Below, in pieces: positions 5,724 to 55,278 of a stretch of 64,000 nt of DNA. Each line of letters opens with the position of its first letter. Within the stretch, counting starts at the first letter, position 1. The notes below the pieces were generated by a model. That model was not told the origin of the DNA and did no database searches. It saw only the letters and a program-made list of their open reading frames with translations. Origin of the DNA: a virus. The position numbers and the translations under genes are program-made. The DNA is taken from IMG/VR virus record IMGVR_UViG_3300035181_001974; one strand, written 5' to 3'.

Positions 5724-5763
5724 TGTTGTGCAAAACAACCATCACAGAGAATAGAGTCAAGGT

Positions 5764-24868: not shown

Positions 24869-26602
24869 TCACGCTGTGACGTCTAAGACGTAGCGAGAGT
24901 TGCTACAGCCATAGATGCGATAAACGCCGGCAGCCTCCGCTACCTGTTTTTCTGTTAGACCTTGCTTCTTGTTGGCTCGGTACTTGAACCTGTCGTAACG
25001 ATGCATGAAGTCAGTCCACCAGAAGCGAGCGACTGTGGTACCGTTGAACTTCATGCCTGAGGTGGCATAACCGTTTCCTCCCAAGCGATTGTCTGAGTAA
25101 GACATCAACCTCGCTGCATTGTTTTCTCTTGCTATAGCTTTTGCCTTTGATAGCAATTTTGACACCCCGCCTCGTACATGTGTGCCAAGCTTGAAGCACA
25201 GGCGAGCGATCTCAATCGTCGTTCTGTCTGCCCCATTTCGTGCCCACCTAAGGCTGCAGGCGCCTACGATTTCGCCCGATGAGGTTACCAATCGCACGGC
25301 AAATTGGGCCCTCACGTGACCGTCGAGGTGGCACTGATTGATGAATTCTCGAACTTCTTCGGGCTCGCAGCGTTCTGCTTTCAACTTACGCGCATCGACT
25401 TTGGTAGAAAACCCAAGGCGATGGCGCAACATGCTTTCGATTATCGGTCGTTTGTCGCGCCACTCATCCTCAAATAACGTGAAAAGCGATACGCCGGCTT
25501 TGAGGGACAGCAATCTCTTCTTTTCCGCGTGATCGTGCTCAAATCTATTGGCGGCCTCGCTGTGCCAGTATAGGCCATTGCACTCGATGGCAAACATGCG
25601 CGATGGAATGAGTATGTCGAGCTCCATTCCGCCGAGCGTCTTACGATCGCTAAGGACTGCGTCAGGTGCCAGCGTCTGGATAAATGCGTAGACGTCCTGT
25701 TGCCACCTGCTCGTTTTGTCTGACCAAGGCGGAAAGCAGGTGGGACACTTGGCCTCGTTGTTGAACACTGCGCCAACGCAACGCTCAAATATTGTTGAAC
25801 ATATCGTGCATTCGATGCGCGCTTTGGTGACAGTATCGACATATTCGTCAATGAGTTTAAGCTGCTTTTCTTTGAGGCGTTTTTGTACCTCGTCGTGCGT
25901 CAGCAACTTTGCCTTGCGCATTTTTTCAAGCGTTACGTCGCTAAAGAATCGTCCTTTCAACGAAGCGCTGATCTTCTTACTGCGAGATTCAATGATGCTA
26001 GACGTATCCTTTGTCAGGCCAAGTGACCAGCCGCTGTGCGTTGCATAATACCTCCGCAGGCTGTCGCTGATTTTTGCCGCCTTTTGTTTAAGGCTTTCGT
26101 TGTTTTCCTTTGTCTTGTCGGAGTTGTGGTGACCGTGTTCCTTGTAGTGAGCTCGCATGTTTGCAGCACTGGCTGACATGCGTTCGTCATTGTCTTTCGT
26201 CAGGCCTTTGTTCCATGACGAGGTGCCCTTGGACGCGTATGCGTGTTTTCGGCTACAACGTGGACACCGTTCGGGGTATCCTTTTTCTTGATCGATGAAC
26301 CTGACCCAGTCGCAACAATCGATGCACGTCTTCCTGCACCCTGGGTACCTTGTTTCATACACAACGACGGGTGATTTTTGGTGCGTTTTTGTGCAGTGCA
26401 ATGTCAACTTACGCCCGCTGTCATATGACGCCTCACACCACGGACACGCGTAAGTTGACACCTGTTTGGGAGGCCTGGCGTCTTCTCGCCTGTGTCGTGC
26501 CTCGTGGATCTTCAATGCTCGTAGCGTTTCGTGGTTTCGACCACAACGAGCGCATGTAAATTCAACTGTAGTTGAGTTAGGATTCATGTGATGGTCGTTC
26601 AT
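24869..26602 (-). CDS. homing endonuclease: C2H2 zinc fingers + NUMOD3 + Vsr-like (DUF559/EDxHD-type) nuclease + C-terminal GNAT-like domain; inserted antisense inside intein 3
   Basis: FTCARCGRNHETLRALKIHEARH and YACPWCEASY..HCTKTH fingers; NUMOD3-like GHHNSDKTKENNESLKQKAAKIS; nuclease core ELDILIPSRMFAIECNGLYWHSE...D; C-terminal RGGVSKLL...RFWWTD shared with 27288..29087. Confidence 0.7.
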   Translation of the reverse strand: MNDHHMNPNSTTVEFTCARCGRNHETLRALKIHEARHRREDARPPKQVSTYACPWCEASYDSGRKLTLHCTKTHQKSPVVVYETRYPGCRKTCIDCCDWVRFIDQEKGYPERCPRCSRKHAYASKGTSSWNKGLTKDNDERMSASAANMRAHYKEHGHHNSDKTKENNESLKQKAAKISDSLRRYYATHSGWSLGLTKDTSSIIESRSKKISASLKGRFFSDVTLEKMRKAKLLTHDEVQKRLKEKQLKLIDEYVDTVTKARIECTICSTIFERCVGAVFNNEAKCPTCFPPWSDKTSRWQQDVYAFIQTLAPDAVLSDRKTLGGMELDILIPSRMFAIECNGLYWHSEAANRFEHDHAEKKRLLSLKAGVSLFTLFEDEWRDKRPIIESMLRHRLGFSTKVDARKLKAERCEPEEVREFINQCHLDGHVRAQFAVRLVTSSGEIVGACSLRWARNGADRTTIEIARLCFKLGTHVRGGVSKLLSKAKAIARENNAARLMSYSDNRLGGNGYATSGMKFNGTTVARFWWTDFMHRYDRFKYRANKKQGLTEKQVAEAAGVYRIYGCSNSRYVLDVTA

Positions 26603-27445
26603 TCATTTTTGGCGTCCAACAAGAGCGTCGTTGTTCACAACACCGATCTTGCCAGGCGAGATGAGGTTCTTGATGAACTTCGAAACTTTTTTGGGTGGGA
26701 AAACGTCGTTCCCATCAGCAATTATAACTGTTTCAAACTAAAAACGCTTGTAAAGGATATCGGCAAGTTCTACGGCATCCCATTCGAGGAGACCAACGCT
26801 GCCACGCGGACCGTCGAGGACGAGGTCCGTAAGGCGACGATGAAGGAAGGCGACGACAAGAATCTGTTCGTCTTGACCTACGATGAGGCCATGGCCTTCC
26901 ACTGCAGGGCTCCTAAGGGCCCGGAGTCGAAGTCCATCTGCCAGGGCTGTAGCCCAGAGTGTAAGCAGCCGGTCAGCCCGTCGTTTCGCGGCTTCATTGA
27001 GAAGTACCCGGTCGTCGCCGAGTCGATCAAGATCCTCTTCAAGCAGAATCGTAGTCTCGGTCGTCACGCGGGTGGTGTGCTGATTGCAGACGATTTGCCC
27101 AACAAGATGCCTTTGGTGACGTCCAAAGGCAAGGCCGGCGTCCGCGAGCCACAGTCACCTTGGGTCGAGGGCGTAAATTATAAACACCTTGAGAAGATCG
27201 GAGAGTTCATCAAGTACGACCTCCTAGGTCTAGAAACGATGCGGCTCATCGAGCGCGCCATCGAGCTCATCATCAAAAAGGAACGACATGAAAGAGGGTG
27301 GTTTGAGATCCAACTCGACGATGGAACGACACGAGGCGTCTACGGCGACCAACGAATCGTCACCAGCAACAGGGGCACCATCCTTGCGAGGGAGCTCGGG
27401 CCCGGCGATGACATCGTGTCCTTCGAGGTGCCCACAGTGCAATGA
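26588..27445 (+). CDS. dnaE: very short C-part of intein 3 (at most 22 codons, ..HSFLASNKSVVVHN) + extein 4 (DnaE palm/fingers segment)
   Basis: VVVHN|TDLARRDEVLDELRNFFGWENVVPISNY..KTLVKDIGKFYGIPFEE aligns to E. coli [48 protein letters not shown]; later RHAGGVLIA, KYDLLGLETMRLIERAIELI; in-frame stop 3 codons upstream of the first listed start. Confidence 0.75.
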   Translation: MMVVHSFLASNKSVVVHNTDLARRDEVLDELRNFFGWENVVPISNYNCFKLKTLVKDIGKFYGIPFEETNAATRTVEDEVRKATMKEGDDKNLFVLTYDEAMAFHCRAPKGPESKSICQGCSPECKQPVSPSFRGFIEKYPVVAESIKILFKQNRSLGRHAGGVLIADDLPNKMPLVTSKGKAGVREPQSPWVEGVNYKHLEKIGEFIKYDLLGLETMRLIERAIELIIKKERHERGWFEIQLDDGTTRGVYGDQRIVTSNRGTILARELGPGDDIVSFEVPTVQ

Positions 27446-29087
27446 TCCATTGCGAAAAGCTAGCCTAAATTCGCTCCGCGCACATCTCCTTAAAAAGCAC
27501 GGGCTCAATGCGGAGGCTGCGTACCTTCTTTTTCGAGAGCACCCTGGACCGTGCGTTCAGTGTTCAGGGCCGGTCAAGTTCATGACCTTTCAAACGGGAT
27601 ATGAACGTCTCTGTGGAGTTTGTAGCAAGAAGAACTCTCAAGTAAGAGGTGCGCTTAGCCGGAAATCAAAATCATTGCCTGCATGGAACAAGGGGCTGTC
27701 AGAAACAACGTCTGAATCGGTTCGAAGGGCCGCACAAGGTTGTCGTGATTTCATCAAAAAACACGGGCACTGGAGAACAGGACAAACTAAAGAAAATAAT
27801 GAATCTATCACAAGAGCTGCGCATAACATCTCTCGAGCATTGACTGAAAAATGGCAAGTAGAAAAACACTGGACGCAGCACGGTCAGACGTCAGAAACTG
27901 ACGATAGGATCAAACGGCGATCAGAACGGATCGGCGAAGGCGTTCGCTTGAATCATTGGTCTCGGAACGCTAATTCTGAAGATATCAAACGTTCGATCAT
28001 CGAGACTAGAAAACGCCTTATCGAGAACGGCACTAACTCTCCTTTTCGGTTGTCTCTCGAAGAGGTCGAACGGCGAGTTGATGCACTGCGGTCGAGGTGG
28101 AACATCGAAAAATTTGAGTTTGCTGGATACTCAACACCGGTGCATGTGACATGCGTCAGTTGTAACGTACCTGATATTGTTCCCTTTAACGTCCTTTACA
28201 AGGGAAAGGTGTGTTCAACGTGCTACCCGGCTAATTTCTCTCGCTGGCATCGTGAGGTGTTCGATTTCTTCGTCAAGCTCGATTCGAACGCCATCGCCAA
28301 CGACAGACAGTCAATCGCGCCTTATGAGCTGGACATCGTGTCAGGTAACGGAAGGATTGCCATCGAGTGCAACGGTGTCTATTGGCACAGTGAGGCGACC
28401 GGTACTCCACCATCGTATCACCAAGACAAGTCGACTCGCGCTCTTGAGCGTGGTGTGTCGTTGCTACATATCTTCGACGATGAATGGCACCATGATGTAA
28501 AGAAAAACATCATCAAAAGCATGATCAGGGTAAAGCTTGGTCTTGCTACTCGCGTGATGGCACGAAAGCTACATCTTCGCAGCGGTCGTCCAGCCATCAC
28601 CGCTCAGTTCATGGCGAACAATCACCTCGATGGAAACACTCCTTCGTCGCATTCGTTCTGGCTAGAGGACATTGCTGGAAACATTATTTGTGCATTGACA
28701 TTGCGAAAACCGCACCAGCAGACTAAGTGGGGATCTAAGACAATTGAATTGGCGCGGGTTTCAACGGCCCGCGATACCATCGTCGTTGGAGGCATGTCGC
28801 GGTTGATCAACGCTGCCAGGGATTGGTCACGTGAGCATGGTTACCAAAAAATGATCACATACCGTGACATGAGGTTGGGTGGCACTGGCCGGGCGTATGA
28901 ACTATCTGGTTTTAGATTTGATCACATGACGCAGCCTAGGTTTTGGTGGACGGACGGACAAAATCGTATCGATAGATTTGCTGTCAGGGCGATTCCGGGG
29001 ATCGCATCACAAGAAGAGATGGCGATGGAACACAGGCTTTTTAAGATCTTTGGTTGCTCCAACGCGGTGTACGTTATGGACCTGTGA
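27411..29087 (+). CDS. homing endonuclease (paralog of 24869..26602) inserted directly in the dnaE extein; ORF track start 27288 is probably an overlap artefact
   Basis: Zn-finger/NUMOD3-like N-terminus, Vsr-like core ELDIVSGNGRIAIECNGVYWHSE, C-terminal GGMSRLI...RFWWTD...FGCSNAVYVMDL domain. Confidence 0.65.
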   Translation, partial: TSCPSRCPQCNDPLRKASLNSLRAHLLKKHGLNAEAAYLLFREHPGPCVQCSGPVKFMTFQTGYERLCGVCSKKNSQVRGALSRKSKSLPAWNKGLSETTSESVRRAAQGCRDFIKKHGHWRTGQTKENNESITRAAHNISRALTEKWQVEKHWTQHGQTSETDDRIKRRSERIGEGVRLNHWSRNANSEDIKRSIIETRKRLIENGTNSPFRLSLEEVERRVDALRSRWNIEKFEFAGYSTPVHVTCVSCNVPDIVPFNVLYKGKVCSTCYPANFSRWHREVFDFFVKLDSNAIANDRQSIAPYELDIVSGNGRIAIECNGVYWHSEATGTPPSYHQDKSTRALERGVSLLHIFDDEWHHDVKKNIIKSMIRVKLGLATRVMARKLHLRSGRPAITAQFMANNHLDGNTPSSHSFWLEDIAGNIICALTLRKPHQQTKWGSKTIELARVSTARDTIVVGGMSRLINAARDWSREHGYQKMITYRDMRLGGTGRAYELSGFRFDHMTQPRFWWTDGQNRIDRFAVRAIPGIASQEEMAMEHRLFKIFGCSNAVYVMDL

Positions 29088-34564: not shown

Positions 34565-35038
34565 ATGACGAGGGCGTGCCCAACGCGGACGCACTCCGAC
34601 AGTGGGCCGAGGCTTGGGAAGCCGCTGAACAACAGTGGGAAGAGACGATGGAGAGGACGGAGCGCGACAACAGGTGCCTCGAGGAAGAAAGGATCGCAGA
34701 TGAGTCGACGCGGCATCGTGATAACGCTACAGGTCTCTCTCCCAACTTGGGATAAAGAAAAGAACCAGTGGATGTTGCCTCCTCCCAGCGTTAAGCTGGC
34801 GCGGAAGCTACGCATGGCCCTCAGCAATGACATGACAGAAGCCTCGGAGGAAGAGATCGAGGCGTATGCCGTCCAGCTAGCTGAGGACTTCAAGAAAGAA
34901 GTCACGCTTGATGAGTGGAGTGGATTTTTCCGCGGGATCATCGAGCGAGTTCGTGACTATGATCGCGAGGGTCACGAGCGACGTGCTAGATTTAGCAACA
35001 TCTCCCCGGGCATCGGCAACCGCAAGGACGACGTTTAG
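34565..35038 (+). CDS. hypothetical protein
   Basis: 157-aa ORF; overlapping alternative frames make the start uncertain. Confidence 0.3.
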   Translation: MTRACPTRTHSDSGPRLGKPLNNSGKRRWRGRSATTGASRKKGSQMSRRGIVITLQVSLPTWDKEKNQWMLPPPSVKLARKLRMALSNDMTEASEEEIEAYAVQLAEDFKKEVTLDEWSGFFRGIIERVRDYDREGHERRARFSNISPGIGNRKDDV

Positions 35039-38000
35039 CCGTCAATCGGCTCCCAGATCTGGCTGTGATCCGAGTCAGCCTTCTTGACCTTGAGCTTGCC
35101 GTCGTCCGTCTTGGAAATGACTGCCTGCTCACCGGCCGAGAACTGCGTGTCTTGTCCGGCCACGTAGGCTTGACCTTTCAATCGCGTCGCGGCCGGGTGA
35201 CCTTTGAATCGGCCGTAGATTTTGTAGGTCGTCTTCGGACCCTTGGCTGCCGTGGGCTCAATCGCTGCAGCTGCGGCGGGCGCGGCAGCTGTTGCCTTCG
35301 ACGGCGGCGACTTCTTAATCGGCGGCGCCACGTTTTCTGGTGCATTTTCCTCACGGGCGCCCGAGGCCGTCGTCATCAACGGGAATGCGGTCAACAGGTA
35401 CCTGTCGCCATACTTGACCATCGCCATGTTGTACGGGTGACCACCGCTACCCGGAGCATGGACAGCCTTGACGTATGTGACCTCGGCACCGCGCTTCAAG
35501 GCAACCTGAGGTAGGTTCTTGGTGTACGTCTCACGGCCATTCGGGCTCGTGAACTTCCAGTAGACCGCGCCCTTGGTGCGCATCCTGGACGCACGGCTGC
35601 GATTCGGTGACAACTTCGTGTACTTGCCACCGCGGATGACGGGCTCGGAAGAGTAACGATTGACCTCGATCTCTTCACTTTCGATCTCGTCATTTTCGCG
35701 GCCGGTGATGTCAAAAGCCGAGACATCATTGCTGATGTAGTACGTCCTGCCCGGGCGTGCGCCGGCCGAGCCGACCTCAGAGCGCCTTGGCTCAACGCTG
35801 CCACGAACCTTGTTCAGGGCATGCATGGCAGCAGCCGCGCCCGCGGGCGTCAGCTGGAACAGCGCGCCCTTGTCGATACCCGGCGGTGCCCAGTACCAAG
35901 CTGAGCCGCTGGCATTGATGCCTCGCACGGGTTCCTTGCCGTGTTGAGTGCTCTTCCACAAATCGTGGCGTCGAACCAGGCGACCCATCCAGTCAAACCA
36001 TGCTGACTCGATTTCTTCGCGGGTGGCGTGGCCGTTGTTCTGCAGCAAGAAGATGACAATGAACTCGTCAGACTTGAGAGACTTTGTCGAGATGTCGCGC
36101 CAGGAGGGATTCATGATGTCCTGGTTCTCGTTTTCGTCGCTGAGCTCTTCCAACAAGATCCTACGCATGCCCATCGCAGCCTTGACATAGGCCTCAGCGA
36201 CCTTTAGGGACTTCAGAGTCTTGCGAGCGACCCTCCTGACGAAGTTGTCGCTGTCTTTGGTCAAGGCCTGCAGGACATCGTTGCCGACAGCGGCATTTGA
36301 CGCGGCAGCCGCGCGGATGGCGACGGCCTCATCGCGGGATAGCTGTTTCAGAACATTAACGGGCGTGTTGGGGTTAGCAGCCACCGCGGCCCGCGTAGAA
36401 GTCGACTCATCACCTGCGAGGACAGCTAGGTCCTCCTTGGGCGTGACCGGATTGTGGGCCACCGCAAAGCGGTAGGCGTGATTCTTGCTGAGGGCGAACT
36501 TGCTGGCATTTGACGCTCCGATCGACGGGTTCTGCAATAGCGCCGTCCTGATGTCGGGCGTGACCGACTTCCACAACAACTCGACAGTGTCAGAGTCGAT
36601 GTTCGACTGCTTCAACAACTTGATCAAGAACTGCGTCGACAACTTGTCACGGAGCTTAACGATCAAGGCACCTAGGTGAGCCGGTGGCAGGTTGGGTGCC
36701 TTCATGATGTTCTTCAGGTCGTATTCGTCAGTGACGGGGATCAACATGAGCTGCTCGGGCGTCAAGTTCAGTTCGTCAATGTGTCTCAACACCTGACCTG
36801 CGACGACGTGGTAATGTGAAGCAGAGCTGCTTTCCACGGCTTCCTTGAACTGCTCAAGCGTGTAGCGCCCGCTTTTGATCAAGGCCCACCATGCATCGTG
36901 TTTTGCCATGTCATTCTTGAAGTTCGGAATGACCTTAACGATCTCGTCCTTCAATGCGTCAGGAGCGCGTGGATTCTCCATGATGGCCGCGATGACGGCC
37001 TCGTTGCCGCTCTTCACCAACTGCGTGAAGTTCTCTTCTGTCAGGTTGGCATGTTCGATGGCCCGCTTGATGTAGTAGCTGTTGCCGCCATCGCCGATCT
37101 TCTGAATGAAGAACATCGCCGCATCGGGCGTCAAGTTGCCGATGTTGTCGCTGAGCGCATACATCAAGAATGAAAGCATGTACTTGTCTTCTCCGGTCTC
37201 GACCTTCTTCGCCGCGAGATCATAGACCTTCTGCACCACCCGCAACGTCATCTTGGCACTCTTGGCGATTTTTTGTAGCGCCTGCGAAGACACGTCTTTG
37301 CCCGCCATCAGGTCATTGACATGCTCCTCAACCGCGCGTTGTTCGTCCTCAACCTCACGGGTCAGTGGGACCTTCTTGACGTGAGCCTCAATCTTTGACC
37401 AGATTGCCGGCCACTCGACGCCCACGTGTTTAGCAACTGTCGATACCGGGACTCGTTTGTCAGAGGCATCGTAGGCCTCATTATTGCGGCCCGCCTCGTC
37501 ACGAATGACGATGGCGTACTTGGAACTCGGAGGCGGGGGTGTGGTCTGCAACTGCGTCTTGTCAATGACGAAGTAGAACTTGTTGTTGCTGGTTGAATAC
37601 GTCGAGAAGTAGTTGTGGCTCGTGGTCGCTGCAATGCACCACTTGGTTCCGATGCCGTACTTGCAGGAGGCTCCCATGGTGTGAGGACGGATGACCAACC
37701 AGTGATCATCATTGTAGATCACGTCAGAATCAGCCTTGGCCTGCTTGGACTCCTGGCTCTTCGACTTGCCACCCAAGGCCTGGACAGCGGTCTCGATGGC
37801 GCTGGGATCTTCATACTGGTTGATGTCCTTCTTCTCGAGTCGCTGCTTGTTGCCGTCGAACAATCGCATGTTCTGGACGACGACGTTGACTGAAAAGCCA
37901 TCGTCGACCTGCTTGGCACACCACATCAGGTACTTGTTGTTGGACCCTTGCGGCTGATTCTCGACTAGGTCATCGAAGTCCTCGTCGGAAATGTCAGGGT

Positions 38001-38094
38001 ACCGTTCACGGGCGTCTTCTATGCGGCCTTCGACGAGAATCTCAACGTAGCTTTCTAGGATTGACTCGCGCAATGTGCCCAGGGTGACCTTCAT
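35035..38094 (-). CDS. large (1019 aa) protein: N-terminal leader motif, central HEAT/ARM-like repeats, C-terminal domain shared with 52683..54134
   Basis: starts MKVTLGTLRESILESYVE; repeats such as VRAAVAANPNTPVNVLKQLSRDEAVAIRAAAASNAAV; C-terminal TYKIYGRFKG...DGKLKVKKADSDHSQIWEPI. Confidence 0.6.
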   Translation of the reverse strand: MKVTLGTLRESILESYVEILVEGRIEDARERYPDISDEDFDDLVENQPQGSNNKYLMWCAKQVDDGFSVNVVVQNMRLFDGNKQRLEKKDINQYEDPSAIETAVQALGGKSKSQESKQAKADSDVIYNDDHWLVIRPHTMGASCKYGIGTKWCIAATTSHNYFSTYSTSNNKFYFVIDKTQLQTTPPPPSSKYAIVIRDEAGRNNEAYDASDKRVPVSTVAKHVGVEWPAIWSKIEAHVKKVPLTREVEDEQRAVEEHVNDLMAGKDVSSQALQKIAKSAKMTLRVVQKVYDLAAKKVETGEDKYMLSFLMYALSDNIGNLTPDAAMFFIQKIGDGGNSYYIKRAIEHANLTEENFTQLVKSGNEAVIAAIMENPRAPDALKDEIVKVIPNFKNDMAKHDAWWALIKSGRYTLEQFKEAVESSSASHYHVVAGQVLRHIDELNLTPEQLMLIPVTDEYDLKNIMKAPNLPPAHLGALIVKLRDKLSTQFLIKLLKQSNIDSDTVELLWKSVTPDIRTALLQNPSIGASNASKFALSKNHAYRFAVAHNPVTPKEDLAVLAGDESTSTRAAVAANPNTPVNVLKQLSRDEAVAIRAAAASNAAVGNDVLQALTKDSDNFVRRVARKTLKSLKVAEAYVKAAMGMRRILLEELSDENENQDIMNPSWRDISTKSLKSDEFIVIFLLQNNGHATREEIESAWFDWMGRLVRRHDLWKSTQHGKEPVRGINASGSAWYWAPPGIDKGALFQLTPAGAAAAMHALNKVRGSVEPRRSEVGSAGARPGRTYYISNDVSAFDITGRENDEIESEEIEVNRYSSEPVIRGGKYTKLSPNRSRASRMRTKGAVYWKFTSPNGRETYTKNLPQVALKRGAEVTYVKAVHAPGSGGHPYNMAMVKYGDRYLLTAFPLMTTASGAREENAPENVAPPIKKSPPSKATAAAPAAAAAIEPTAAKGPKTTYKIYGRFKGHPAATRLKGQAYVAGQDTQFSAGEQAVISKTDDGKLKVKKADSDHSQIWEPIDG

Positions 38095-43039: not shown

Positions 43040-43999
43040 ATGAGAGTTTTGATTACGGGTGCCGCGGGTTTTATAGGTTCGAACCTGACGAAGGCGTGTC
43101 TAGATGCTGGGTGGCACGTCACCTGCGTCGATGACCTGAGCAACGGTCACCGCGAATTCTTGCCATCGCCCATCGCAGTGCGCTTTCAACCCAACGACTT
43201 TGCGAACTCCACGGTCCTCGATCGGATCAGGCGTCAGGAGTTTGACACGGTCATTCACCTGGCGGCGGTCCCGCGGGTCTCTTACTCAGTCCTCTATCCC
43301 TTGAGAACGCATGAGGTCAACGTCGACAAGACATTGCTCCTCCTGGAGGCTTGCAAGGGCAATGTCAATCACGTCGTCTTCGCCTCCAGCTCATCTGTGT
43401 ACGGAGGCGCTGATGTGCTGCCGACCCCTGAGACTTTTCCACGGAATCCCAAGTCGCCTTATGCTCTGCAGAAGGCGATCATTGAGGACTATCTGCGGTT
43501 GTACAGCGAGCTTTACGGTCTCGACTCAGCCTGCATGCGGTTCTTCAACGTCTTCGGACCCAATCAACTCGGCGATTCACCGTACGCTACTGCGGTTTCT
43601 GCGTGGTTGACGGCGATCAAGAAAGGCGTGCCTATGCGCTCCGACGGTGACGGCTCACAGTCCCGTGACATGTGTTACGTGGACAACGTGGTGTCAGCCT
43701 GCATGAAGGCAGCCACGTATTCTGGAAAGCTTGGAGCCGAAACATTCAACGTGGCGTGCGGTGATCGAACGACGAACAAAGAGATCCTTGAGGAGCTCAA
43801 GCGTCGTTATCCGGGCGCTTCCTATGTCGATGCCCCTTGGCGCCCGGGTGATGTGATGCACACGCAGGCCGACGTTTCGAAAGCTGAGCGTGTACTCGGG
43901 TACATCCCCGTGGTACGATTCTGGGACGGCTTGGACCGCACCATCAAGTGGTACGAGGACAACTGGTCGTGGACCAAGGTATTGAAGCTGCACACATGA
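43040..43999 (+). CDS. UDP-sugar 4-epimerase (extended SDR; candidate UDP-xylose 4-epimerase)
   Basis: VLITGAAGFIGSNL; SSSSVYGG; catalytic SPYALQK (YxxxK); RFFNVFGPNQ. Confidence 0.7.
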   Translation: MRVLITGAAGFIGSNLTKACLDAGWHVTCVDDLSNGHREFLPSPIAVRFQPNDFANSTVLDRIRRQEFDTVIHLAAVPRVSYSVLYPLRTHEVNVDKTLLLLEACKGNVNHVVFASSSSVYGGADVLPTPETFPRNPKSPYALQKAIIEDYLRLYSELYGLDSACMRFFNVFGPNQLGDSPYATAVSAWLTAIKKGVPMRSDGDGSQSRDMCYVDNVVSACMKAATYSGKLGAETFNVACGDRTTNKEILEELKRRYPGASYVDAPWRPGDVMHTQADVSKAERVLGYIPVVRFWDGLDRTIKWYEDNWSWTKVLKLHT

Positions 44000-44184
44000 A
44001 AATCATCGAAACAACACACGCTGTTACAAGCAGTAATGATCTACGCACTGCTCTAAGAGAACATGTCGACACTGCGAAGTTTGCTGGGTTTCTACCTTCC
44101 CAACAAGAACCGGTGCTCTTGGAGCTTGTGAGTCTAAAGAATGGATCGCTGGTAATCAAAACATCGAGAAGCGTGGAGGAATAG

Positions 44185-44844
44185 TTGATTCAAATTCAAT
44201 ACAAGGTTGCCGATGTTCGCTCCTTGTTTAAGGACCTCAAGGAACGCCAGGAACACGTTACTGACAAGTCTGGTTGCAAGATGATCGAGGTCGTCGGTGC
44301 TACGTTCATCGCTAACGAAACATCGATCTTCGGAACGGTCAATCAGGACTACGTGGCTCGTGAGATTGAATGGTATCGCTCCATGTCACGGAACGTCAAT
44401 GACATCCCCGGTGGAGCACCAGCGGTCTGGAAGGCTTGTTCATCGAAGAGAGGCGAGATCAACTCCAATTATGGTTACCTCATCTGGAGCGAGGACAACT
44501 ACAAGCAATATGACCACGTGCTAGCAGAGCTGAAGCGTGCTCCGGAGAGCCGGCGTGCCGAGATGATCTATACGCGGCCCTCAATCTGGAAGGAATATAA
44601 CCGCGATGGGATGAGTGATTTCATCTGCACGGACTCAGTTCAGTATTTCATTCGCAACGGTCAAGTCATTGCTGACGTTCGCATGAGGTCGAACGACGTC
44701 GTCTTTGGATACAAGAACGACAAAGCCTGGCAGGATTATGTTCACCAGCAGTTGGCGGCAGATTTGGGTCTACCCGTGGGTCCAATGATCTGGCACGCTG
44801 GGTCACTTCATGTCTATGAACGACATTGGAATCTCATTGATTGA
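44185..44844 (+). CDS. deoxycytidylate 5-hydroxymethyltransferase (T4 gp42-like, ThyA fold)
   Basis: long collinear matches to T4 gp42: KGEINSNYGYLIWSEDNYKQYD, PESRRAEMIYTRPS, DGMSDFICTDSVQYFIRNG, VRMRSNDVVFGYKNDKAWQDYV, AGSLHVYERH; TTG start. Confidence 0.85.
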   Translation: MIQIQYKVADVRSLFKDLKERQEHVTDKSGCKMIEVVGATFIANETSIFGTVNQDYVAREIEWYRSMSRNVNDIPGGAPAVWKACSSKRGEINSNYGYLIWSEDNYKQYDHVLAELKRAPESRRAEMIYTRPSIWKEYNRDGMSDFICTDSVQYFIRNGQVIADVRMRSNDVVFGYKNDKAWQDYVHQQLAADLGLPVGPMIWHAGSLHVYERHWNLID

Positions 44845-45124
44845 TCACGATCGATTAGTACGATACGTCTTGCCTTCAAGCGATAATCATCGCTTGGCAG
44901 CCATTTATTGAATCTATGATGACTTGTGCATGCATCAGGGTGACGATGGTTACGTCGGCATTGCATACAAGCATCGTTTCGCTTCAAGAATCATCGTACA
45001 CGATGTGCACATAACATTGTATGTCCACATTGCTCATTAACGTGAAGAGGACCTACGATGTTGCGATACCACTTGATAAATTGCAAAAGTACCGTGAACT
45101 CTACCAGGATTCTACATACGGCAA

Positions 45125-45303
45125 ATGAAGCGCAAGCCCGTACCTAACATTGAGGACCTCTTCGTGGCGGCGATTCAATCGTCGCTTGAGGCAGCGCACC
45201 TCCTCAAGTTGTCGCACGACCAGTTCATGGCCCTTGTGGAAGGTGCTTGGCAGGTCGATGCGGAACGTATGTCGAAAGAAACCCAAGAAGGCAAGGAGAA
45301 ATA
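45125..45303 (+). CDS. hypothetical small protein (59 aa, below ORF-track cutoff)
   Basis: ATG at 45125, ends ...EGKEK* just before 45307; located in an otherwise AT-richer intergenic region. Confidence 0.3.
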
Positions 45304-45306
45304 GCA

Positions 45307-45852
45307 ATGACCTGTATCATTGGTTTGGTGGACGGTAAGAACGTGTGGCTCGGCGGCGATCGTGCCGCGACGGGCGGCAATCTAGGTCGCACCCTCATCA
45401 AGCATCCCAAGATCTTCACGAAGAGCGGTATTGGCATCGGCGTCAGCGGCTCGTCCAAGGTCATGGATGCCATCCAACACGCCATCGAGTTCCCGAAGCA
45501 CGAGGAAGGCGTGGCGACTAAGACGTTCCTCGTTAATGATCTGATCCCGGCCTTCCGCGAGGGTCTGAAGAAGCTCGACTGCCTCGTTGAACACCACGGG
45601 CAGTGGTATTTTCACGGTGCCTTGTTGATCGGGTACAGAGGCGAACTGCACATGGTCGAGGGCAACTTCCAGCTCATTGAGAGTGCACGGGAGTTTGACG
45701 CGATCGGCAGCGGCGCCGAGCCAGCACTGGGTAGCCTCCGTGCCACGCGAAATGAGGGGCCGAAGAAGAGGATCCTCGAGGCGCTCAAGGTTTCTGCAGA
45801 AAACAATGCCGGCGTCGCACCACCGTTTGACACCCTGATGGTGAAAGGTTGA
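45307..45852 (+). CDS. HslV / proteasome-beta-like Ntn-hydrolase, paralog 1
   Basis: MTCIIGLVDGKNVWLGGDRAATGG.. compare HslV [24 protein letters not shown]; C-terminal DAIGSGAEPALGSLRA matches HslV AIGSGGPYAQAAARAL. Confidence 0.6.
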   Translation: MTCIIGLVDGKNVWLGGDRAATGGNLGRTLIKHPKIFTKSGIGIGVSGSSKVMDAIQHAIEFPKHEEGVATKTFLVNDLIPAFREGLKKLDCLVEHHGQWYFHGALLIGYRGELHMVEGNFQLIESAREFDAIGSGAEPALGSLRATRNEGPKKRILEALKVSAENNAGVAPPFDTLMVKG

Positions 45853-45855
45853 ACC

Positions 45856-46401
45856 ATGACCTGCATTGTCGCACTGGAACACGAGGGTACTGTCTGGGTC
45901 GGTGGTGACTCTGCAGGCATCGATGGTTTGAGCATCTGCAACCGGGCCGATGAGAAGGTCTTTATCAACGAGAACCTCATCATGGGGTTCTGCGGGTCCT
46001 TCCGCATCGGTCAGTTGCTACGCTACTCGCTCGAGGTCCCCGAGCAATCGGTGAAGCAGACCGACGACATGGAGTACCTGGTCAATGACTTTGTTGATGC
46101 TGTCAGAGAACTCCTGAATGAGAAGGGCGCGGCGAAGAAGGAGAACGAGCTGGAAGAGCATGAGTCGTCCTTCATCGTTGGCTTCAAGGGTAAGATTTAC
46201 GTGGTTGAAGAGGACTACCAGGTGGGTCGACCCCGTGAGAACTACGCGGCCGTGGGCTGCGGCGCCCAGATCGCTCTGGGCGCCCTGTACGCTACGAGGA
46301 ACAGCAACATGCAACCCCAAGATCGTCTCCGCGTGGCCCTCGAGGCCGCAGCAGAGTACAGCGCGGGCGTTCGAGGACCCTTCGCCTTTTTGAGCCTCTG
46401 A
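45856..46401 (+). CDS. HslV / proteasome-beta-like Ntn-hydrolase, paralog 2
   Basis: MTCIVALEHEGTVWVGGDSAGIDG..; AAVGCGAQIALGALYA. Confidence 0.6.
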   Translation: MTCIVALEHEGTVWVGGDSAGIDGLSICNRADEKVFINENLIMGFCGSFRIGQLLRYSLEVPEQSVKQTDDMEYLVNDFVDAVRELLNEKGAAKKENELEEHESSFIVGFKGKIYVVEEDYQVGRPRENYAAVGCGAQIALGALYATRNSNMQPQDRLRVALEAAAEYSAGVRGPFAFLSL

Positions 46402-46413
46402 CACAGGAGAGAG

Positions 46414-46989
46414 ATGCAGAACCCTTCCTTCACCGTTTTCTGCGGTCCGATGTTCTCGTCAAAAACATCGCGACTGTTGATGGAACTGGAGCGTTGCAAG
46501 TTCCAGCACAAGTCCGTCGCGGTCTTCAAGCCGCAGATCGACACTCGTTATGCAGTCGGTGACATTGTCAGTCACAGCGGCTGGCGAGCGCAGGCTGTGA
46601 CGGTGAAGGAAGGCGCCGACCTGTTGCAGCACATCCTCGACAGCGACACCGACTACAAGGTCATCGCTGTCGACGAGGCCTTCATGATTCACGGGATCGC
46701 TGAAGTGCTAATTTTCTTGTATCGCTCGGGTTTCTCGATCATCGTCTCCACGTTGGACATGGCCGCCAATGGGAAGCCATTCCCGGAAGTCACCCAACTG
46801 TTGCCTTGGGCGACCGAGGTCATCAAGTGTACCGCTGTCTGCACTGTTTGCGGCCGTGATGCTCATTATACGCATAAGAAGGTCACGGGCGGTGATGAAC
46901 ACACCGTCGAGGTGGGCGGCGACGAGCTCTACGAGCCGCGGTGTTGGGAGCACCACTTGCTGATCAACAACAAGCACAAGATGCCTTGA
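46414..46989 (+). CDS. tdk: thymidine kinase
   Basis: P-loop VFCGPMFSSKTS; zinc motif CTAVCTVCG...C..H; size 191 aa. Confidence 0.85.
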   Translation: MQNPSFTVFCGPMFSSKTSRLLMELERCKFQHKSVAVFKPQIDTRYAVGDIVSHSGWRAQAVTVKEGADLLQHILDSDTDYKVIAVDEAFMIHGIAEVLIFLYRSGFSIIVSTLDMAANGKPFPEVTQLLPWATEVIKCTAVCTVCGRDAHYTHKKVTGGDEHTVEVGGDELYEPRCWEHHLLINNKHKMP

Positions 46990-47004
46990 CAAATACATCA
47001 TCAG

Positions 47005-47457
47005 ATGACGCTAAAATCACTCATTACCGAGGCGGTACGGGCGCACCTGTTTGAACAGGTCCGCAAGAAGTTCAACATGCACCTGCCCGATGATCTCAGG
47101 CAGTTGGCGACCCTCTTCAAGAGCGCTGGACACCAGCTCTACGTTGTCGGCGGTTCAGTCCGCGATGCTTTGCTGGGCAAGGAGCCCAAGGATTACGACG
47201 TTGCGACTGAGGCGACTCCTGACCAGGTTATTTCGCTCCTGGAGACTGATCCCGGCCTCAAGATCCTGCCCATCGGCAAGTCATTCGGCGTCGTCAAGGT
47301 GATCACTCCCGAGGGCGGTGAATATGAGATCGCCACCTTCCGCAAGGAGACGTATGCTTCTAATACTAGGGATGACTTTGTGAAGTTTATCCGCGCAAAG
47401 GGACCAGAGTATGAGAAAAGGCTTCGTCTGTTCATTGATCGATCCGATCACGCCTAA
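47005..47457 (+). CDS. cca: CCA-adding tRNA nucleotidyltransferase, N-terminal piece (head domain) - gene interrupted
   Basis: LYVVGGSVRDALLGKEPKDYDVATEATPDQV...GEYEIATFRKETY is the class II CCA/polyA polymerase head; the continuation motif (RRDLTINA) is found only in the downstream ORF 47654..48529. Confidence 0.75.
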   Translation: MTLKSLITEAVRAHLFEQVRKKFNMHLPDDLRQLATLFKSAGHQLYVVGGSVRDALLGKEPKDYDVATEATPDQVISLLETDPGLKILPIGKSFGVVKVITPEGGEYEIATFRKETYASNTRDDFVKFIRAKGPEYEKRLRLFIDRSDHA

Positions 47458-47614
47458 AATTCGTTACGTTGGTATAACTGTAGGACCGTGGAATAAAGGT
47501 GTTCTGGCAACTCAAGAACACAAACGTAAATTGGGTGTTCCCAAGCCCCTAGAACAAAAGAACATTCAGAACGTATTGCTCAATCAAAACGTGAAATGTG
47601 GGCAAAAGGATTGA
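47411..47614 (+). pseudogene. GIY-YIG homing-endonuclease-like relic inside the CCA gene interruption
   Basis: KGFVCSLIDPITPKIRYVGIT mirrors I-TevI GIYQIKNTLNNKVYVGSA (GIY...YIG spacing); ORF only 67 aa. Confidence 0.4.
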
Positions 47615-47653: not shown

Positions 47654-48529
47654 ATGACGTGGCAAAAGATAGCAAAGGAAATATTTCCTGAAGAATTCAA
47701 GCAATTTGAAAGACTTAATGGTCGTCGGCCCGACGCGGTCGAGTTCACTGACATTGCTTCGGACGTGCAGCGCCGCGATCTGACGATCAACGCCTTGTTC
47801 TACGACATCGACAAAGGGGAGATCGTCGACTTCGTCGGCGGAATCGACGACATCCAGAACGGGATCGTCAAGGCAGTTGGAGACCCAGGTGCGCGATTTG
47901 CAGAAGACAGGTTGCGCATCCTGCGGGCCCTGCGATTTGCGACACGCATGGGGTCACAACTTGACCCTGCGACGGCTCAGGCCATCAAAAATGACAATAA
48001 GTTGAGCGGGGTTTCCCCTGAACGAATTAGAGACGAGTTTTTGAAGGGCATTCTAGCGACCCGATCTGTGCCGTCGTTCCTTGACATGATGGAGGAGTAC
48101 GACCTCTGGCCACAGGTGTTCCCGGGTCTTAACGTTGCGCGGGTTCCGATCGACACGAAGAACGTGCCGGTGGTTCTCGCCCGATTGTTGTGGGGTAACG
48201 CTCCCGATCTTGTGGCAAAGCGCCTTAATGCGTTGAAGTACTCTGCCGACGAGGTAGCGCAGGTGACGTTTCTCCTGCGATTCAAGGACTTGACTCCCGA
48301 GAATGCCTTCAGGCTACGCAAGGCTTACCTGATCAGCAAGCTGTCGGACAAGGACTTGATTGAGTTCGCTGCAATGAAGAGCACGCCTGAACCGCGCTTG
48401 GTTCGAGCCTTCCTGAAGTACAGGCCCACCATCACAGGTGATGAGCTAATGGCACAAGGATTCACGGGCGCTCAGTTGGGCAAGGAGATGGAGCGCCGTG
48501 AGACGGAGCTCTTCAAGGAGTTACTGTGA
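47654..48529 (+). CDS. cca: CCA-adding tRNA nucleotidyltransferase, C-terminal piece
   Basis: GRRPDAVEFTDIASDVQRRDLTINALFYDIDKGEIVDFVGGIDDIQNGIV...AVGDPGARFAEDRLRILRALRFATRMG = canonical continuation of the head plus neck. Confidence 0.75.
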   Translation: MTWQKIAKEIFPEEFKQFERLNGRRPDAVEFTDIASDVQRRDLTINALFYDIDKGEIVDFVGGIDDIQNGIVKAVGDPGARFAEDRLRILRALRFATRMGSQLDPATAQAIKNDNKLSGVSPERIRDEFLKGILATRSVPSFLDMMEEYDLWPQVFPGLNVARVPIDTKNVPVVLARLLWGNAPDLVAKRLNALKYSADEVAQVTFLLRFKDLTPENAFRLRKAYLISKLSDKDLIEFAAMKSTPEPRLVRAFLKYRPTITGDELMAQGFTGAQLGKEMERRETELFKELL

Positions 48530-48984
48530 TGACCCACAATAGCGAAGAACTGCGGCCCACCTGGCCTTCGATCTGGATGGCAGTCGCCAAGACGATTGCC
48601 TTGCGTTCTTACGATCCCAGGCTAAAGGTGGGCGCCATCGTCGTCTCATACGACAATACCCAGATGTTGTCGATCGGGTACAACGGCAACTACAAAGGCG
48701 GGCCACACGAGCACGAGTCGAAGGAACCTGGCAAGTCAGGCTTTATTCACGCCGAGGTCAATGCGCTGGTCAAGTGTGACTTCAACTTTCCCAAGAAGAA
48801 ACACCTGTACGTGACTCACAGCCCGTGCAAGGACTGCGCCAAGTTGATCATCAATGCTGAGATTGCCCGAGTTGTTTATGAGATTCCCTACCGCGATCCG
48901 GCAGGGCTAAATCTCCTGCGGTCCGTCGGTATTGAAGTGCTATCGCTAGAGGATGCGATTATCAACTCAAGATTGGCCCGTTGA
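48526..48984 (+). CDS. dCMP deaminase
   Basis: zinc-binding HAEVNAL and PCKDCAKLI motifs; 152 aa. Confidence 0.85.
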   Translation: MMTHNSEELRPTWPSIWMAVAKTIALRSYDPRLKVGAIVVSYDNTQMLSIGYNGNYKGGPHEHESKEPGKSGFIHAEVNALVKCDFNFPKKKHLYVTHSPCKDCAKLIINAEIARVVYEIPYRDPAGLNLLRSVGIEVLSLEDAIINSRLAR

Positions 48985-49244: not shown

Positions 49245-49529
49245 ATGAAGACACTGACTGAGGCTGATGTCCTTCGCATTATGCGTGAGGAATGGGATAA
49301 CAAGGTCAATCAACTCGCTGAGACCATCGACGTCGCACTGACGGCGAAACTGGGCAAAGGTGATGAGAAGATCGTCATCTCTCCCGAGCTAAAGGTACTG
49401 CACAAGAAGAGCGGCATCCGCTACACGGTTGACTCCGTCGGGCCCCGCGATTGCATTCTCCGAACGCCGGAAGGTGAGACCTTCCTTGTTGACGCTACAA
49501 CCTTGGAGCAAGAATATGAGCTTGACTGA
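49245..49529 (+). CDS. hypothetical protein
   Basis: 94-aa ORF. Confidence 0.35.
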   Translation: MKTLTEADVLRIMREEWDNKVNQLAETIDVALTAKLGKGDEKIVISPELKVLHKKSGIRYTVDSVGPRDCILRTPEGETFLVDATTLEQEYELD

Positions 49530-50226
49530 CAAAGACACGGGCCTCGACGTCGACGGCCTTCTAAGGAAGTCCGTGAAGGAGACGATGGGCGCGGCACGCG
49601 AGCCTCTCAAGGAAGCGTACGTGGCCGAGCAGAAGCCCTTCAAACAGGTCTCCGAGCTCATCTCACAGAAGACCAAGGACGCTCACACCGCCCTCTACAA
49701 GGACTACATTGAGCAAGTGAATCAGGTCTCGTCGGAGCTCGACACCGCAGATCGTTCGGGTGCCAATTCGAAGCACAGCGACTTCAGATCGTTGAAGCTA
49801 GACGAGGCATACAACCTCAATGCCGTCTGGCTGCACGAGTTGTACTTTGCCAACTGTTTCGATCCTCACAGCGAGATCGTGATGGATTCGATCTCGTACC
49901 TGAAGCTACAGCGTGACTTCGGGACCTTCGAGGACTGGCAACGTGACTTCATTGCCTGCGGCATGGCGGCGGGCAACGGTTGGGTGGTGTGCGGTTATCA
50001 CGCCTTCTTGAAGCGCTATGTCAATGTCATCATCAGCAATCACAGCCAGGACGTCATGGTTGGGTTGTACCCTATCATCGTGGTCGACATGCATGAACAT
50101 GCCTACTACCGCGACTACCTGTCCGACAAGAAAAGCTATCTCATCTCGCAGATGCGCGAGTTCAACTGGACCGTGATCGAAGACCGCTTCAAGCGCGGTG
50201 AGGCGATTGCAGTGGCGGTGAAGTGA
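49516..50226 (+). CDS. Fe/Mn superoxide dismutase-like protein
   Basis: C-terminal NGWVVCGYH...PIIVVDMHEHAYYRDY matches SOD G.GWAWL...P.LG.DVWEHAYY; N-terminal His ligands only partly conserved; start taken at MSLTDKD. Confidence 0.55.
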   Translation: MSLTDKDTGLDVDGLLRKSVKETMGAAREPLKEAYVAEQKPFKQVSELISQKTKDAHTALYKDYIEQVNQVSSELDTADRSGANSKHSDFRSLKLDEAYNLNAVWLHELYFANCFDPHSEIVMDSISYLKLQRDFGTFEDWQRDFIACGMAAGNGWVVCGYHAFLKRYVNVIISNHSQDVMVGLYPIIVVDMHEHAYYRDYLSDKKSYLISQMREFNWTVIEDRFKRGEAIAVAVK

Positions 50227-54142: not shown

Positions 54143-54910
54143 ATGGACTTCGGGCAACCTAACGCAGTAATTGTTGCAGCAGTTCAGTTCGAGCCTAAGC
54201 TGTTCGACGTGAGGCAGAACCTCGCGACAGCGCAGCAGTTGGCCTTCGAGGCTGCTGCAAAGGGCGCTCGCGTGATCGTGTTGCCCGAGCTCTGCACCTC
54301 CGGCTATGTCTTCCGCAATCCCCGCGAGGCGATGGAGTGCGCTCAGACCCGTGATGGGTACCAAACAGAAGCGTTCCTGCCGATCGCTCGACGGTTCAAC
54401 TGTCACATCGTCTTCGGTTATCCAGAGCTCCGCGAAGGCATGCTGTACAACTCAGCGGCTACCGTGGGCCCTGGAGGCCTCGTAGGAAATTCGCAGAAAC
54501 ACAACCTATGGGGCAATGACAATCTTTGGGCGCAGCCTTCAGATGTTCAACATGAGGTCCTGGTAACTCCGGTCGGTCGCCTGGGTGTGCTGATCTGTCG
54601 GGATGCCATGAACAAGTACCGGGAATCGTACCAGTTCTTCAAGCCCGGTCACAAGTTCTATCCCAAAGGCTCAGTCGACACCATTGCACTGTTGACCAAC
54701 TGGGGCGCTGCCTTCGGTTATCCTGACTCGGCCTGGGTCGAGCTGGTCGAGGACACTCGAGCCAACTTGATCGTCAGCAACCGCGTGGGTGAAGAACGTG
54801 ACCTGAAGTGGAAGGGCGGTTCCTGCATCATTGACCGCGATCGTCGGATCTGGACCAATGGCTCTTCCTTCACAGAGTCGGCCGTCGTCGGTGGAGTGGT
54901 GTTGCTGTGA
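54143..54910 (+). CDS. carbon-nitrogen hydrolase (nitrilase superfamily)
   Basis: VAAVQFEP...RVIVLPELCTSGY (catalytic Glu), LICRDAMN (catalytic Cys). Confidence 0.65.
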   Translation: MDFGQPNAVIVAAVQFEPKLFDVRQNLATAQQLAFEAAAKGARVIVLPELCTSGYVFRNPREAMECAQTRDGYQTEAFLPIARRFNCHIVFGYPELREGMLYNSAATVGPGGLVGNSQKHNLWGNDNLWAQPSDVQHEVLVTPVGRLGVLICRDAMNKYRESYQFFKPGHKFYPKGSVDTIALLTNWGAAFGYPDSAWVELVEDTRANLIVSNRVGEERDLKWKGGSCIIDRDRRIWTNGSSFTESAVVGGVVLL

Positions 54911-55278
54911 AGTTGACGGACCTACACGAGGAGTTCATCAACGTGGCGCGAAGACCGATGCAATTCGGTCGCCTGCCCGTCAATACCCGTAGGGTTGAAC
55001 TGCCCGTGGTGCCGATGGATCGTTGGGTCAAGGAAGGCTCGCCAGCCCATCTGACGAAGACGTATAAGTTTCGCAGGCAGTCTGATCGCAATCCCTTTGT
55101 GTTGGCCTTGATGGAATACGAGGAACAGGTTGGACACCACGCGCGGTTGACCCTAGATGAGGATACCGTGAAGGTGGAGCTGCTGACGAGGGACATCGAG
55201 CAGGTCACAGAACTCGACAAGGAATTTGCTAAGTACGCTGACGACGTCTACAAGGACCTCGCCATGCGGCCCGATTGA
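54907..55278 (+). CDS. hypothetical protein
   Basis: 123-aa ORF. Confidence 0.35.
   Translation: MKLTDLHEEFINVARRPMQFGRLPVNTRRVELPVVPMDRWVKEGSPAHLTKTYKFRRQSDRNPFVLALMEYEEQVGHHARLTLDEDTVKVELLTRDIEQVTELDKEFAKYADDVYKDLAMRPD

Follow-up and report, generated by a model that had tools for sequence, protein, structure and literature searches.

The 64,000-nucleotide viral DNA analyzed here (IMG/VR virus record IMGVR_UViG_3300035181_001974), referred to below as the window, carries at positions 45307-46401 two adjacent open reading frames, ORF A and ORF B, which encode paralogous proteasome-like N-terminal nucleophile (Ntn) hydrolases. With a rough probability of 0.6, both products (A and B for short) are ring-forming, unfoldase-independent peptidases that use an N-terminal threonine (Thr1), differ in specificity, and are each able to act alone, perhaps also mixing with each other. 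Directly shown are the homology and fold of the two proteins, their retained catalytic residues, the way the copies were gained and lost among relatives, and the arrangement of the genes. The family and its occurrence in phages are already catalogued; new here are the clade of A-type paralogs and the placement of both genes in tandem, and the locus itself reveals no new mechanism or chemistry.

Paralogy, fold, and active sites

A preliminary description, made from the sequence alone, had proposed two diverged paralogs in tandem, and indeed both ORFs occupy exactly 45307-46401 on the plus strand. BLASTP aligns them with 33% identity across 186 columns (E = 2e-30), a similarity far above chance, and they are true paralogs. 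Both begin with MTCI and carry a ..G..W.GGD motif near the N-terminus, as described. The third reported motif, GSG...A.GAL, is also present (GSGAEPALGSL in A and GCGAQIALGAL in B), although at residues 134-144 it belongs to the last third of the protein and not to the extreme C-terminus. A longer ORF A starting from TTG 45247 was rejected because every ortholog starts at MTCI, and ATG 45307 is favored. Only 3 nt separate the stop of ORF A from the start of ORF B; together with the Shine-Dalgarno-like sites (Table 1), this spacing suggests translational coupling of the two genes.

Profile searches place both proteins in PHROG 1040, "peptidase HslV family" (1.6e-18 for A and 1.2e-23 for B). B also matches the Pfam family Proteasome (PF00227; 26.9 bits vs the gathering score of 22.4), and A has no Pfam match at E ≤ 0.1, being tied to the family through B, PHROG 1040, and its predicted structure. 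AlphaFold2 models of B and A, built from alignments of 64 and 50 homologs, reach predicted local distance difference test (pLDDT) values of 95.1 and 96.8, respectively, and both show a compact proteasome-beta fold in which strand and helix order is kept, with helices H1-H4 and no insertions. According to Foldseek, the first PDB match is Thiobacillus BPH (5ovt/5ovs with template modeling [TM] scores of 0.83-0.84 for B; 5ovs with 0.78 for A), followed by HslV and 20S beta subunits; out of >1100 PDB matches at E ≤ 1e-3, the best 50 for each protein are all BPH, HslV, or 20S subunits. The B-type profile ranks the PDB entries likewise (BPH 5.7e-7, HslV ~1e-5). A single-sequence search of PDB with A gave nothing meaningful, so structure prediction was needed.

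The residues T2, D18, K34 (B) or K35 (A), G44 (B) or G45 (A), G134, A140, and G142 are invariant, both in the 64 and 50 sequences of the two alignments and among 110 A-type and 120 B-type proteins. The first four are the equivalents of Thr1, Asp17, Lys33, and the oxyanion Gly47, a register confirmed by hidden Markov model (HMM) alignments to HslV and BPH. Given this invariance in both subfamilies, both active sites are maintained. The start codon is followed by Thr (M/V/L-Thr) in 187 of the 192 family members from the loci, and 4 of the remaining 5 have Ser there. The Ser129 equivalent is more variable: A-type proteins have Ser in 105 of 110 cases (GSG), while B-type proteins have Cys in 89 of 120 (GCG) and Ser in 18, and T5-like homologs have GCG as well.

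The members with Ser after the start codon are L096 (4554-5051), L142, L149, and L165 (MSTIV, LSCIVG, and MSCVAG), and a Ser start is also reported for BPH outside beta-proteobacteria. The B copy of L096 is unusually divergent, with 28% identity to that of the window.

The preliminary description had drawn attention to the Cys that follows the Thr. The Thr-Cys start is nearly invariant in both subfamilies, yet it is not peculiar to them: it also occurs in Cupriavidus BPH, and T5-like homologs begin with Thr-Ala. It is a trait of the lineage and not a new catalytic feature.

Regarding the differences between A and B, three positions of the S1 pocket stand out, as judged from alignment columns in the register of the HMM alignments to HslV. 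Position 45 is Gly in A-type proteins (94 of 110) and Ile, Ala, or Val in B-type ones (Ile in the window), position 53 is invariably Lys in the A-type and invariably Arg in the B-type, and position 21 is Thr in the former and Val or Ile in the latter. In addition, B has an acidic stretch (KKENELEEHE) where the pore loop lies, a feature shared with BPH, and the corresponding stretch of A is rich in His and aromatic residues. These pocket and pore-loop differences suggest that A and B differ in substrate preference.

Relation to known proteasome homologs

Twenty-two new homologs of the proteasome were described by Fuchs, Alva & Lupas (2021), among which the group I classes with phage members are PPH (~140 aa, without H2), AAH, and CPH; function is known for none of these three, and the characterized members of the proteasome-like family all act on peptide bonds (PMC8665760). 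As far as tested, A and B fit group I, AAH class, on a comparison by distribution and architecture. The shared architecture is a compact subunit of ~180 aa with Thr1/Asp17/Lys33/Gly47 and without propeptide, insertions, or S12/H5.

As for the distribution, the taxonomic spread of AAH matches that of the relatives of B (alpha-proteobacteria, actinobacteria, many phages, and prophage regions in Firmicutes), and this match is, next to the architecture, the ground for the AAH assignment. Among genome matches to the B-type profile, those 44-54% identical to B include chromosomes of Azospirillum, Rhizobium/Ensifer/Mesorhizobium, Frankia, Streptomyces, and Actinoplanes, whereas the Paenibacillus/Brevibacillus homologs (also 44-54%) lie in prophage-like regions with TerL adjoining. 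This bacterial scan used one genome per species and a profile from a B-only alignment, and the taxa listed make up most of the best 80 genome matches. Two features set the present locus apart from the AAH description: ORF A is a divergent, lineage-specific offshoot undetected by Pfam, and the tandem pair is absent from Fuchs et al.

The PPH class, likewise phage-borne and in group I, was ruled out, since A and B have 181 aa with H2 modeled at residues 71-89. HslV proper was ruled out as well: B scores 26.9 bits vs the cut-off of 137 for NF003964 and 26.2 vs 157.75 for TIGR03692, and A has no match. The designation of the pair as HslV/proteasome-like in the preliminary description holds for the superfamily and the intact Thr1 set, but not for the HslV type, as the equivalog cut-offs are missed and the nearest solved fold is BPH. 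HslV (ClpQ) does share the fold and the catalytic residues, and its G-F-x-G-(G/S) oxyanion and G-S-G-x-x-x-A segments align with those of A and B, which explains why public annotation (PHROG 1040, JGI names) calls the family "HslV family". However, in no lineage sampled does an HslU-like gene stand beside the homolog.

BPH (5ovs, 5ovt, 5ovu) is the best match by both structure (TM 0.78-0.84) and profile. It loses its start Met, its Thr1 is modified by epoxomicin, and it forms a homo-tetradecamer with no known substrate or unfoldase (PMC5777263). Common to BPH, A, and B are the lack of a propeptide and, as predicted for A and B, a Thr1 freed by Met removal and the lack of an unfoldase partner; Cupriavidus BPH (Cm-BPH) also begins Thr-Cys, and the acidic pore-loop segment resembles that of B. 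In contrast, identity is only 15-22%, the lysine of BPH is Lys37 owing to a longer S3-S4 region, its pore loop is longer, and it is a bacterial homo-tetradecamer, whereas A and B are known here from genes and monomer models. The paralogous 20S beta subunits (beta1/beta2/beta5) have the same fold and mechanism, and their S1 positions 45 and 53 vary as they do between A and B (Gly/Lys vs Ile/Arg). They differ in that A and B have neither alpha subunits nor propeptide, show no evidence of co-assembly, and were lost independently of each other. Literature searches for experimental work on phage HslV-like or proteasome-like members found none.

Distribution of A-type and B-type genes

An exhaustive profile search finds 7,850 family representatives (clusters at 50% identity) at E ≤ 1e-3 and 626 at E ≤ 1e-30. 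A word-indexed search gives 4,235 B-type homologs at E ≤ 1e-5 but just 118 of the A-type, which fall off steeply below 44% identity. The gene is present in a single copy in each of the 213 GenBank phage records matched by B and each of the 50 matched by A. In IMG/VR, the A-B tandem occupies 7 of 80 loci, with A before B in all 7, and the other 73 have one B-like gene.

A metagenome scan specific for A yielded 46 A-type loci. Eight of them end too early to judge, which leaves 38 informative ones: 26 have B downstream (at a gap of 6-45 nt in 22), and 12 extend far enough yet lack B within 4 kb. At least 8 loci keep the same synteny with A only, i.e., A followed by the gene for thymidine kinase (TK) or the CCA-adding enzyme (L090, L094, L102, L109, L110, L112, L116, and L134), and two (L023 and L160) have B only, after the hydroxymethylase gene. 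The A protein of L090 is the closest relative of window A (73% identity), and TK begins there 49 nt after A. Order also varies, with B before A in L127 and with A moved upstream of the epimerase gene in L117 and L119, where two other genes stand between A and B.

In a neighbor-joining tree the A-type proteins make up one clade, and A-only tips are nested beside A+B tips (L090 being nearest to window A). This nesting implies that B was lost several times within the clade. Median ortholog identity among 25 A+B phages is 54% for A and 49% for B, values which point to constraint on both copies. A is thus a lineage-specific, well-constrained duplicate confined to a clade of ~300-370 kb phages with a T4-like dCMP hydroxymethylase, and, judging by its single-copy relatives, neither copy strictly needs the other.

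Two further candidates for duplication were dismissed. In PBECO4-like jumbo phages, a second tandem pair was considered, but the neighboring "protease" gp097 is unrelated (E = 0.21, different PHROG). The "two HslV-family genes" of Aeromonas and Vibrio phages are not paralogs either: one protein has a C-terminal extension, which is split off in some records. Homologs with this extension of ~140 aa are found in L172 (3501-4484), L253 (3001-3552), and L257 (3001-3989), all Vibrio/Aeromonas, and the protein of 166E36-1 has 327 aa; the split-off second ORF is also annotated as "HslV family" or "nucleophile aminohydrolase".

Gene neighborhoods

The genomic context of proteasome-like homologs (PL) was compared in 14 isolated-phage lineages and the clade of the window, i.e., 15 lineages. 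In T5-like phages the order is nrdA-nrdB-DHFR-ThyA-x-PL, and in Geobacillus phage E3 it is ThyA-DHFR-x-PL. PL directly follows the dCMP deaminase gene in Xoo-sp13 and SCTP-2, while in PBECO4 the deaminase gene is three genes upstream, with Sir2/Nudix/PhoH downstream. It overlaps the start of an anaerobic ribonucleotide reductase gene in PhiF1 and stands at the end of nrdAB..PhoH-x-PL in Vibrio phage 166E36-1 and of Tmk-LigA-x-PL in Tunturi_5. Ochrobactrum phage OC has it between MazG/HNH and a protein phosphatase gene, Aeromonas phage 2L372X has PhoH five genes upstream and then hypothetical genes, and Vibrio phage R16F has PhoH upstream and a DNA ligase gene downstream. In Moorella phage MTATph1, D'Alembert, and DSL-LC01, PL lies among mainly hypothetical genes. 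Thus, a deoxynucleotide-synthesis gene is at most three genes away in 9 of the 15 lineages (the window clade, T5-like, E3, Xoo-sp13, SCTP-2, PBECO4, PhiF1, 166E36-1, and Tunturi_5), and this linkage recurs among large phages.

The 45 dereplicated IMG/VR loci give a more heterogeneous picture. Their 90 adjacent genes include 3 each for portal, NAD-dependent ligase, and HD_4, 2 for TerL, 2 thymidylate-synthase-like genes, and 1 for TK, and one of each of the latter two kinds is the window's own; the 142 genes at positions 2-3 include 5 Metallophos, 3 S78 protease, and 3 TerL genes. This Pfam census of adjacent and next-nearest genes reveals neither a conserved partner gene nor an enrichment in nucleotide functions, and the bacterial neighborhoods are unrelated to nucleotides. 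No AAA+ unfoldase was found near the homologs in the 45 loci or the 14 isolated-phage lineages, nor among the 20 largest ORFs of the window. Overall, the neighborhoods favor expression of the gene along with the replication and nucleotide module but lend no support to a nucleotide substrate.

Several neighbors recur outside these categories. PhoH is a frequent one, and so are genes of NAD metabolism: NAMPT is two genes upstream in L002 (Xoo-sp13), NMNAT/Nudix and NadV are no more than 5 kb away in L004 (Ochrobactrum OC), Sir2 and Nudix are directly downstream in L169 (PBECO4), and a glutamine-dependent NAD synthase gene adjoins the homolog in L228 (Azospirillum). A single homolog in the head module occurs in some phages of 30-50 kb (L028, L041, L021, and L051); the adjoining portal gene of L051 contains an intein with a LAGLIDADG domain.

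Proposed mode of action and alternatives

Under the favored explanation, A and B would be co-transcribed and translationally coupled within the block dCMP hydroxymethylase - A - B - TK, and presumably expressed with the pyrimidine deoxynucleotide genes before virion assembly, the timing being suggested by the neighbors. Both would be made without propeptide, and the host methionine aminopeptidase would strip Met1 and expose Thr1. The hydroxyl of Thr1 would then serve as the nucleophile, protons would be shuttled by the free amino group of Thr1 with Lys33 and Asp17, and the invariant Gly of the G-F/V-C-G motif would form the oxyanion hole. By analogy with BPH (2x7) and HslV (2x6), the subunits may form a barrel of two rings that encloses the active sites and would cleave peptides or unfolded proteins at their peptide bonds, with no AAA+ unfoldase dedicated to it. 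A would have arisen as a duplicate of the B type within a single clade of hydroxymethylcytosine-type jumbo phages, followed by divergence of S1 pocket and pore loop, and the two proteins would hence differ in specificity.

Several observations weigh against this explanation. BPH is inactive on model substrates (PMC5777263), and no biochemical function is established for any AAH, PPH, CPH, or BPH protein, so that the term "peptidase" derives from active-site conservation. ORF B, like 89 of the 120 B-type proteins, has Cys at the position equivalent to Ser129. The tight A-then-B order in the informative loci also fits a mixed particle. Finally, the search for an unfoldase in the window covered 64 kb of a genome of roughly 309 kb, and a partner ATPase encoded elsewhere, or use of a host HslU, is possible.

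The preliminary description took the two diverged copies as a sign of a hetero-oligomeric ring. In such a case A and B would co-assemble into a barrel of alternating A3B3 rings or of an A ring on a B ring, a two-subunit viral "mini-proteasome". Equal lengths, the 3-nt spacing, and coupled translation agree with this, as do the prevalence of A-then-B (26 of 38 informative loci and 7 of 7 IMG/VR pairs) and the differentiation of pore loops and S1 residues with the catalytic set kept in both copies; the subunits of the proteasome have diversified in a parallel manner. However, the A-only and B-only relatives with the same synteny, including L090 with its close A protein, and the nesting of A-only among A+B phages, a sign that B was lost repeatedly, are hard to reconcile with mutual dependence, and so are the separated genes of L117 and L119, the reversed order in L127, and the single copy elsewhere. 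Moreover, HslV and BPH are homo-oligomeric (PMC5777263). The co-assembled barrel is therefore considered rather doubtful; an obligate hetero-ring is unlikely, whereas a facultative mixed A/B particle is possible. A more specific version, in which a two-subunit particle is tied to the deoxynucleotide module, e.g., for targeted proteolysis or processing of host or phage proteins of nucleotide metabolism during take-over, seems improbable, but if true, it would explain why single homologs stand beside ThyA, dCMP deaminase, Nrd, Tmk, and dCMP hydroxymethylase in unrelated large phages.

The same linkage in 9 of 15 lineages could also indicate specific processing enzymes or transpeptidases acting on a few phage or host proteins, such as the enzymes of the deoxynucleotide module. 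A sequence-specific ligase with this fold is known in connectase (PMC7980362; PMC8665760), and the inactivity of BPH on generic substrates (PMC5777263) would fit narrow specificity. Connectase, however, is monomeric, lacks H1/H2, and has insertions of its own (PMC8665760), while A and B have all four ring-contact helices and no insertions, and no conserved candidate substrate gene accompanies the family, so that this role is thought improbable too. The non-proteolytic amidohydrolase role raised in the preliminary description, with a nucleotide or a DNA base-modification intermediate as the substrate, is less probable still and finds little in the data. The dCMP hydroxymethylase and TK flanks are conserved across the clade, and the gene directly follows those for dCMP deaminase (Xoo-sp13, SCTP-2) or occurs after ThyA (T5-like phages). 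But the whole 8-kb block is syntenic in the clade, and the adjacency to the hydroxymethylase gene there accordingly reflects shared ancestry. The largest carrier group, the T5-like phages (Salmonella and Escherichia phages account for 154 of the 213 records), pairs the gene with an ordinary thymidylate synthase, and T5-like phage DNA is not known to be modified. Nucleotide genes are few in the metagenomic census (2 thymidylate-synthase-like and 1 TK among 90), bacterial contexts are unrelated, the peptide-type catalytic residues and oxyanion Gly are invariant, and characterized family members cut peptide bonds (PMC8665760). As for a capsid-maturation (prohead) protease, the context that the preliminary description held to be decisive against its proposal is indeed seen in a minority of small phages: TerL-PL-portal in L028, TerL-PL followed by an S78 protease-capsid fusion in L041, and portal/MuF-PL in L021, in line with the 3 portal and 2 TerL genes among the adjacent and the 3 S78 and 3 TerL genes among the next-nearest ones. 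Yet L041, checked in detail, has its own S78 prohead protease, S78 proteases occupy 3 of the 142 nearby positions, and A and B match no prohead protease family in Pfam or PHROG. The gene's surroundings in the window, in its clade, and in most of the isolated phages examined consist of replication and nucleotide-metabolism genes, with the structural genes located elsewhere, and such a role is hardly credible.

The window and its other genes

Public contigs with exactly these A and B proteins reach 309 kb, and relatives measure 325-370 kb; the window is thus part of a jumbo phage. No near-identical DNA was found among GenBank phages, and the phage is known only from metagenomes, without an isolated close relative. 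Coordinates of the main features are given in Table 1.

Table 1. Positions of ORF A, ORF B, their key residues, and neighboring features in the window
Feature	Position	Strand	Description
ORF A	45307-45852	+	181 aa, begins MTCIIGLVDGKNVWLGGD; proteasome-like Thr1 Ntn hydrolase, lineage-specific A-type paralog
ORF A key residues	Thr2 45310-45312; Asp18 45358-45360; Lys35 45409-45411; GSG 134-136 45706-45714	+	
ORF B	45856-46401	+	181 aa, begins MTCIVALEHEGTVWVGGD; proteasome-like Thr1 Ntn hydrolase, widespread B-type (AAH-like)
ORF B key residues	Thr2 45859-45861; Asp18 45907-45909; Lys34 45955-45957; GCG 134-136 46255-46263	+	
Shine-Dalgarno-like AAGGAGA	45292-45298	+	Before ATG of ORF A; read from sequence
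Shine-Dalgarno-like GAAAGG	45844-45849	+	Within the end of ORF A, before ATG of ORF B; read from sequence
T4 gp42-type dCMP hydroxymethylase	44185-44844	+	PDB 1b49 match, E 8e-76; catalytic Cys and Asp179 equivalent retained; conserved upstream neighbor in clade
59-codon ORF	45125-45304	+	Stops 2 nt short of ORF A; public annotation lists it as a gene
Thymidine kinase	46414-46989	+	PF00265, 5.6e-38; begins 12 nt past ORF B; conserved downstream neighbor
dCMP deaminase	48526-48984		Downstream of the TK and CCA-adding enzyme genes

Mapping the window's neighbors onto the A-type loci gives the conserved block of the clade as epimerase - dCMP hydroxymethylase - A - (B) - TK - CCA-adding enzyme - dCMP deaminase - p94 - superoxide-dismutase-like. 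The preliminary description placed the pair immediately after the dCMP hydroxymethylase gene; the identity of this gene is correct (its Asp179 equivalent is the Asp selecting cytosine), but 462 nt separate it from ORF A in the window, an insertion relative to related phages, whose gap is ~15-30 nt. The 59-codon ORF in this spacer has no family match and no tblastn match in ~125 related loci; having no homologs in relatives, it was ruled out as a partner of A and probably lies outside the system. Repeats in the rest of the spacer (44845-45124) are short, chance-level matches only. A promoter and terminator scan of 43900-47100 revealed nothing above shuffled expectation, and Rfam and tRNA scans of the window gave no match.

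The CCA-adding enzyme gene (PolyA_pol head and RNA-binding domain) is split into ORFs 47005-47457 and 47654-48529 by an insertion of ~300 nt, which holds a 67-codon ORF (47411-47614) whose product has a GIY-YIG-like "IRYVGIT" segment. The halves adjoin each other in relatives, where their starts are ~300-350 nt apart vs 649 nt in the window, and no Rfam intron was found in this region. Hydroxymethylase, TK, and dCMP deaminase genes occur together in the window, and the DNA of the phage is probably based on hydroxymethylcytosine; a further modification with sugar could involve two genes for NAD-dependent sugar epimerases/dehydratases (19205-20227 and 43040-43999).

Elsewhere in the window, two divergently oriented paralogous proteins of ~580-600 aa (24869-26602, minus strand; 27288-29087, plus strand) match PHROGs of homing/HNH endonucleases and, C-terminally, a "Mom-like DNA modification protein". 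A 1019-aa protein (35035-38094, minus strand), encoded opposite to nearly all other genes, matches leucine-rich-variant repeats only faintly, along with two PHROGs of unknown function. Other, unusual auxiliary genes encode an RlaP-like nucleotidyltransferase beside a polynucleotide kinase-phosphatase (4721-6768), an LD-carboxypeptidase (S66; 14506-15477), an Fe/Mn superoxide-dismutase-like protein with an N-terminal extension (49429-50226), and a nitrilase/CN-hydrolase (54143-54910) followed by pterin-4a-carbinolamine dehydratase (54907-55278).

Significance

Phage-borne proteasome homologs are common, as the 213 GenBank phage records and 7,850 clusters show, and function is known for neither the phage proteins nor their AAH and BPH relatives. 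The clade described here amounts to a natural experiment, in which the gene was duplicated, both active sites were kept, the S1 pocket and pore loop were changed, and relatives lost either copy. A and B are thereby matched proteins for studies of specificity and offer a comparative handle on the family. The linkage to deoxynucleotide genes that recurs in large virulent phages, among them the genetically tractable T5-like ones, could open a route to function.

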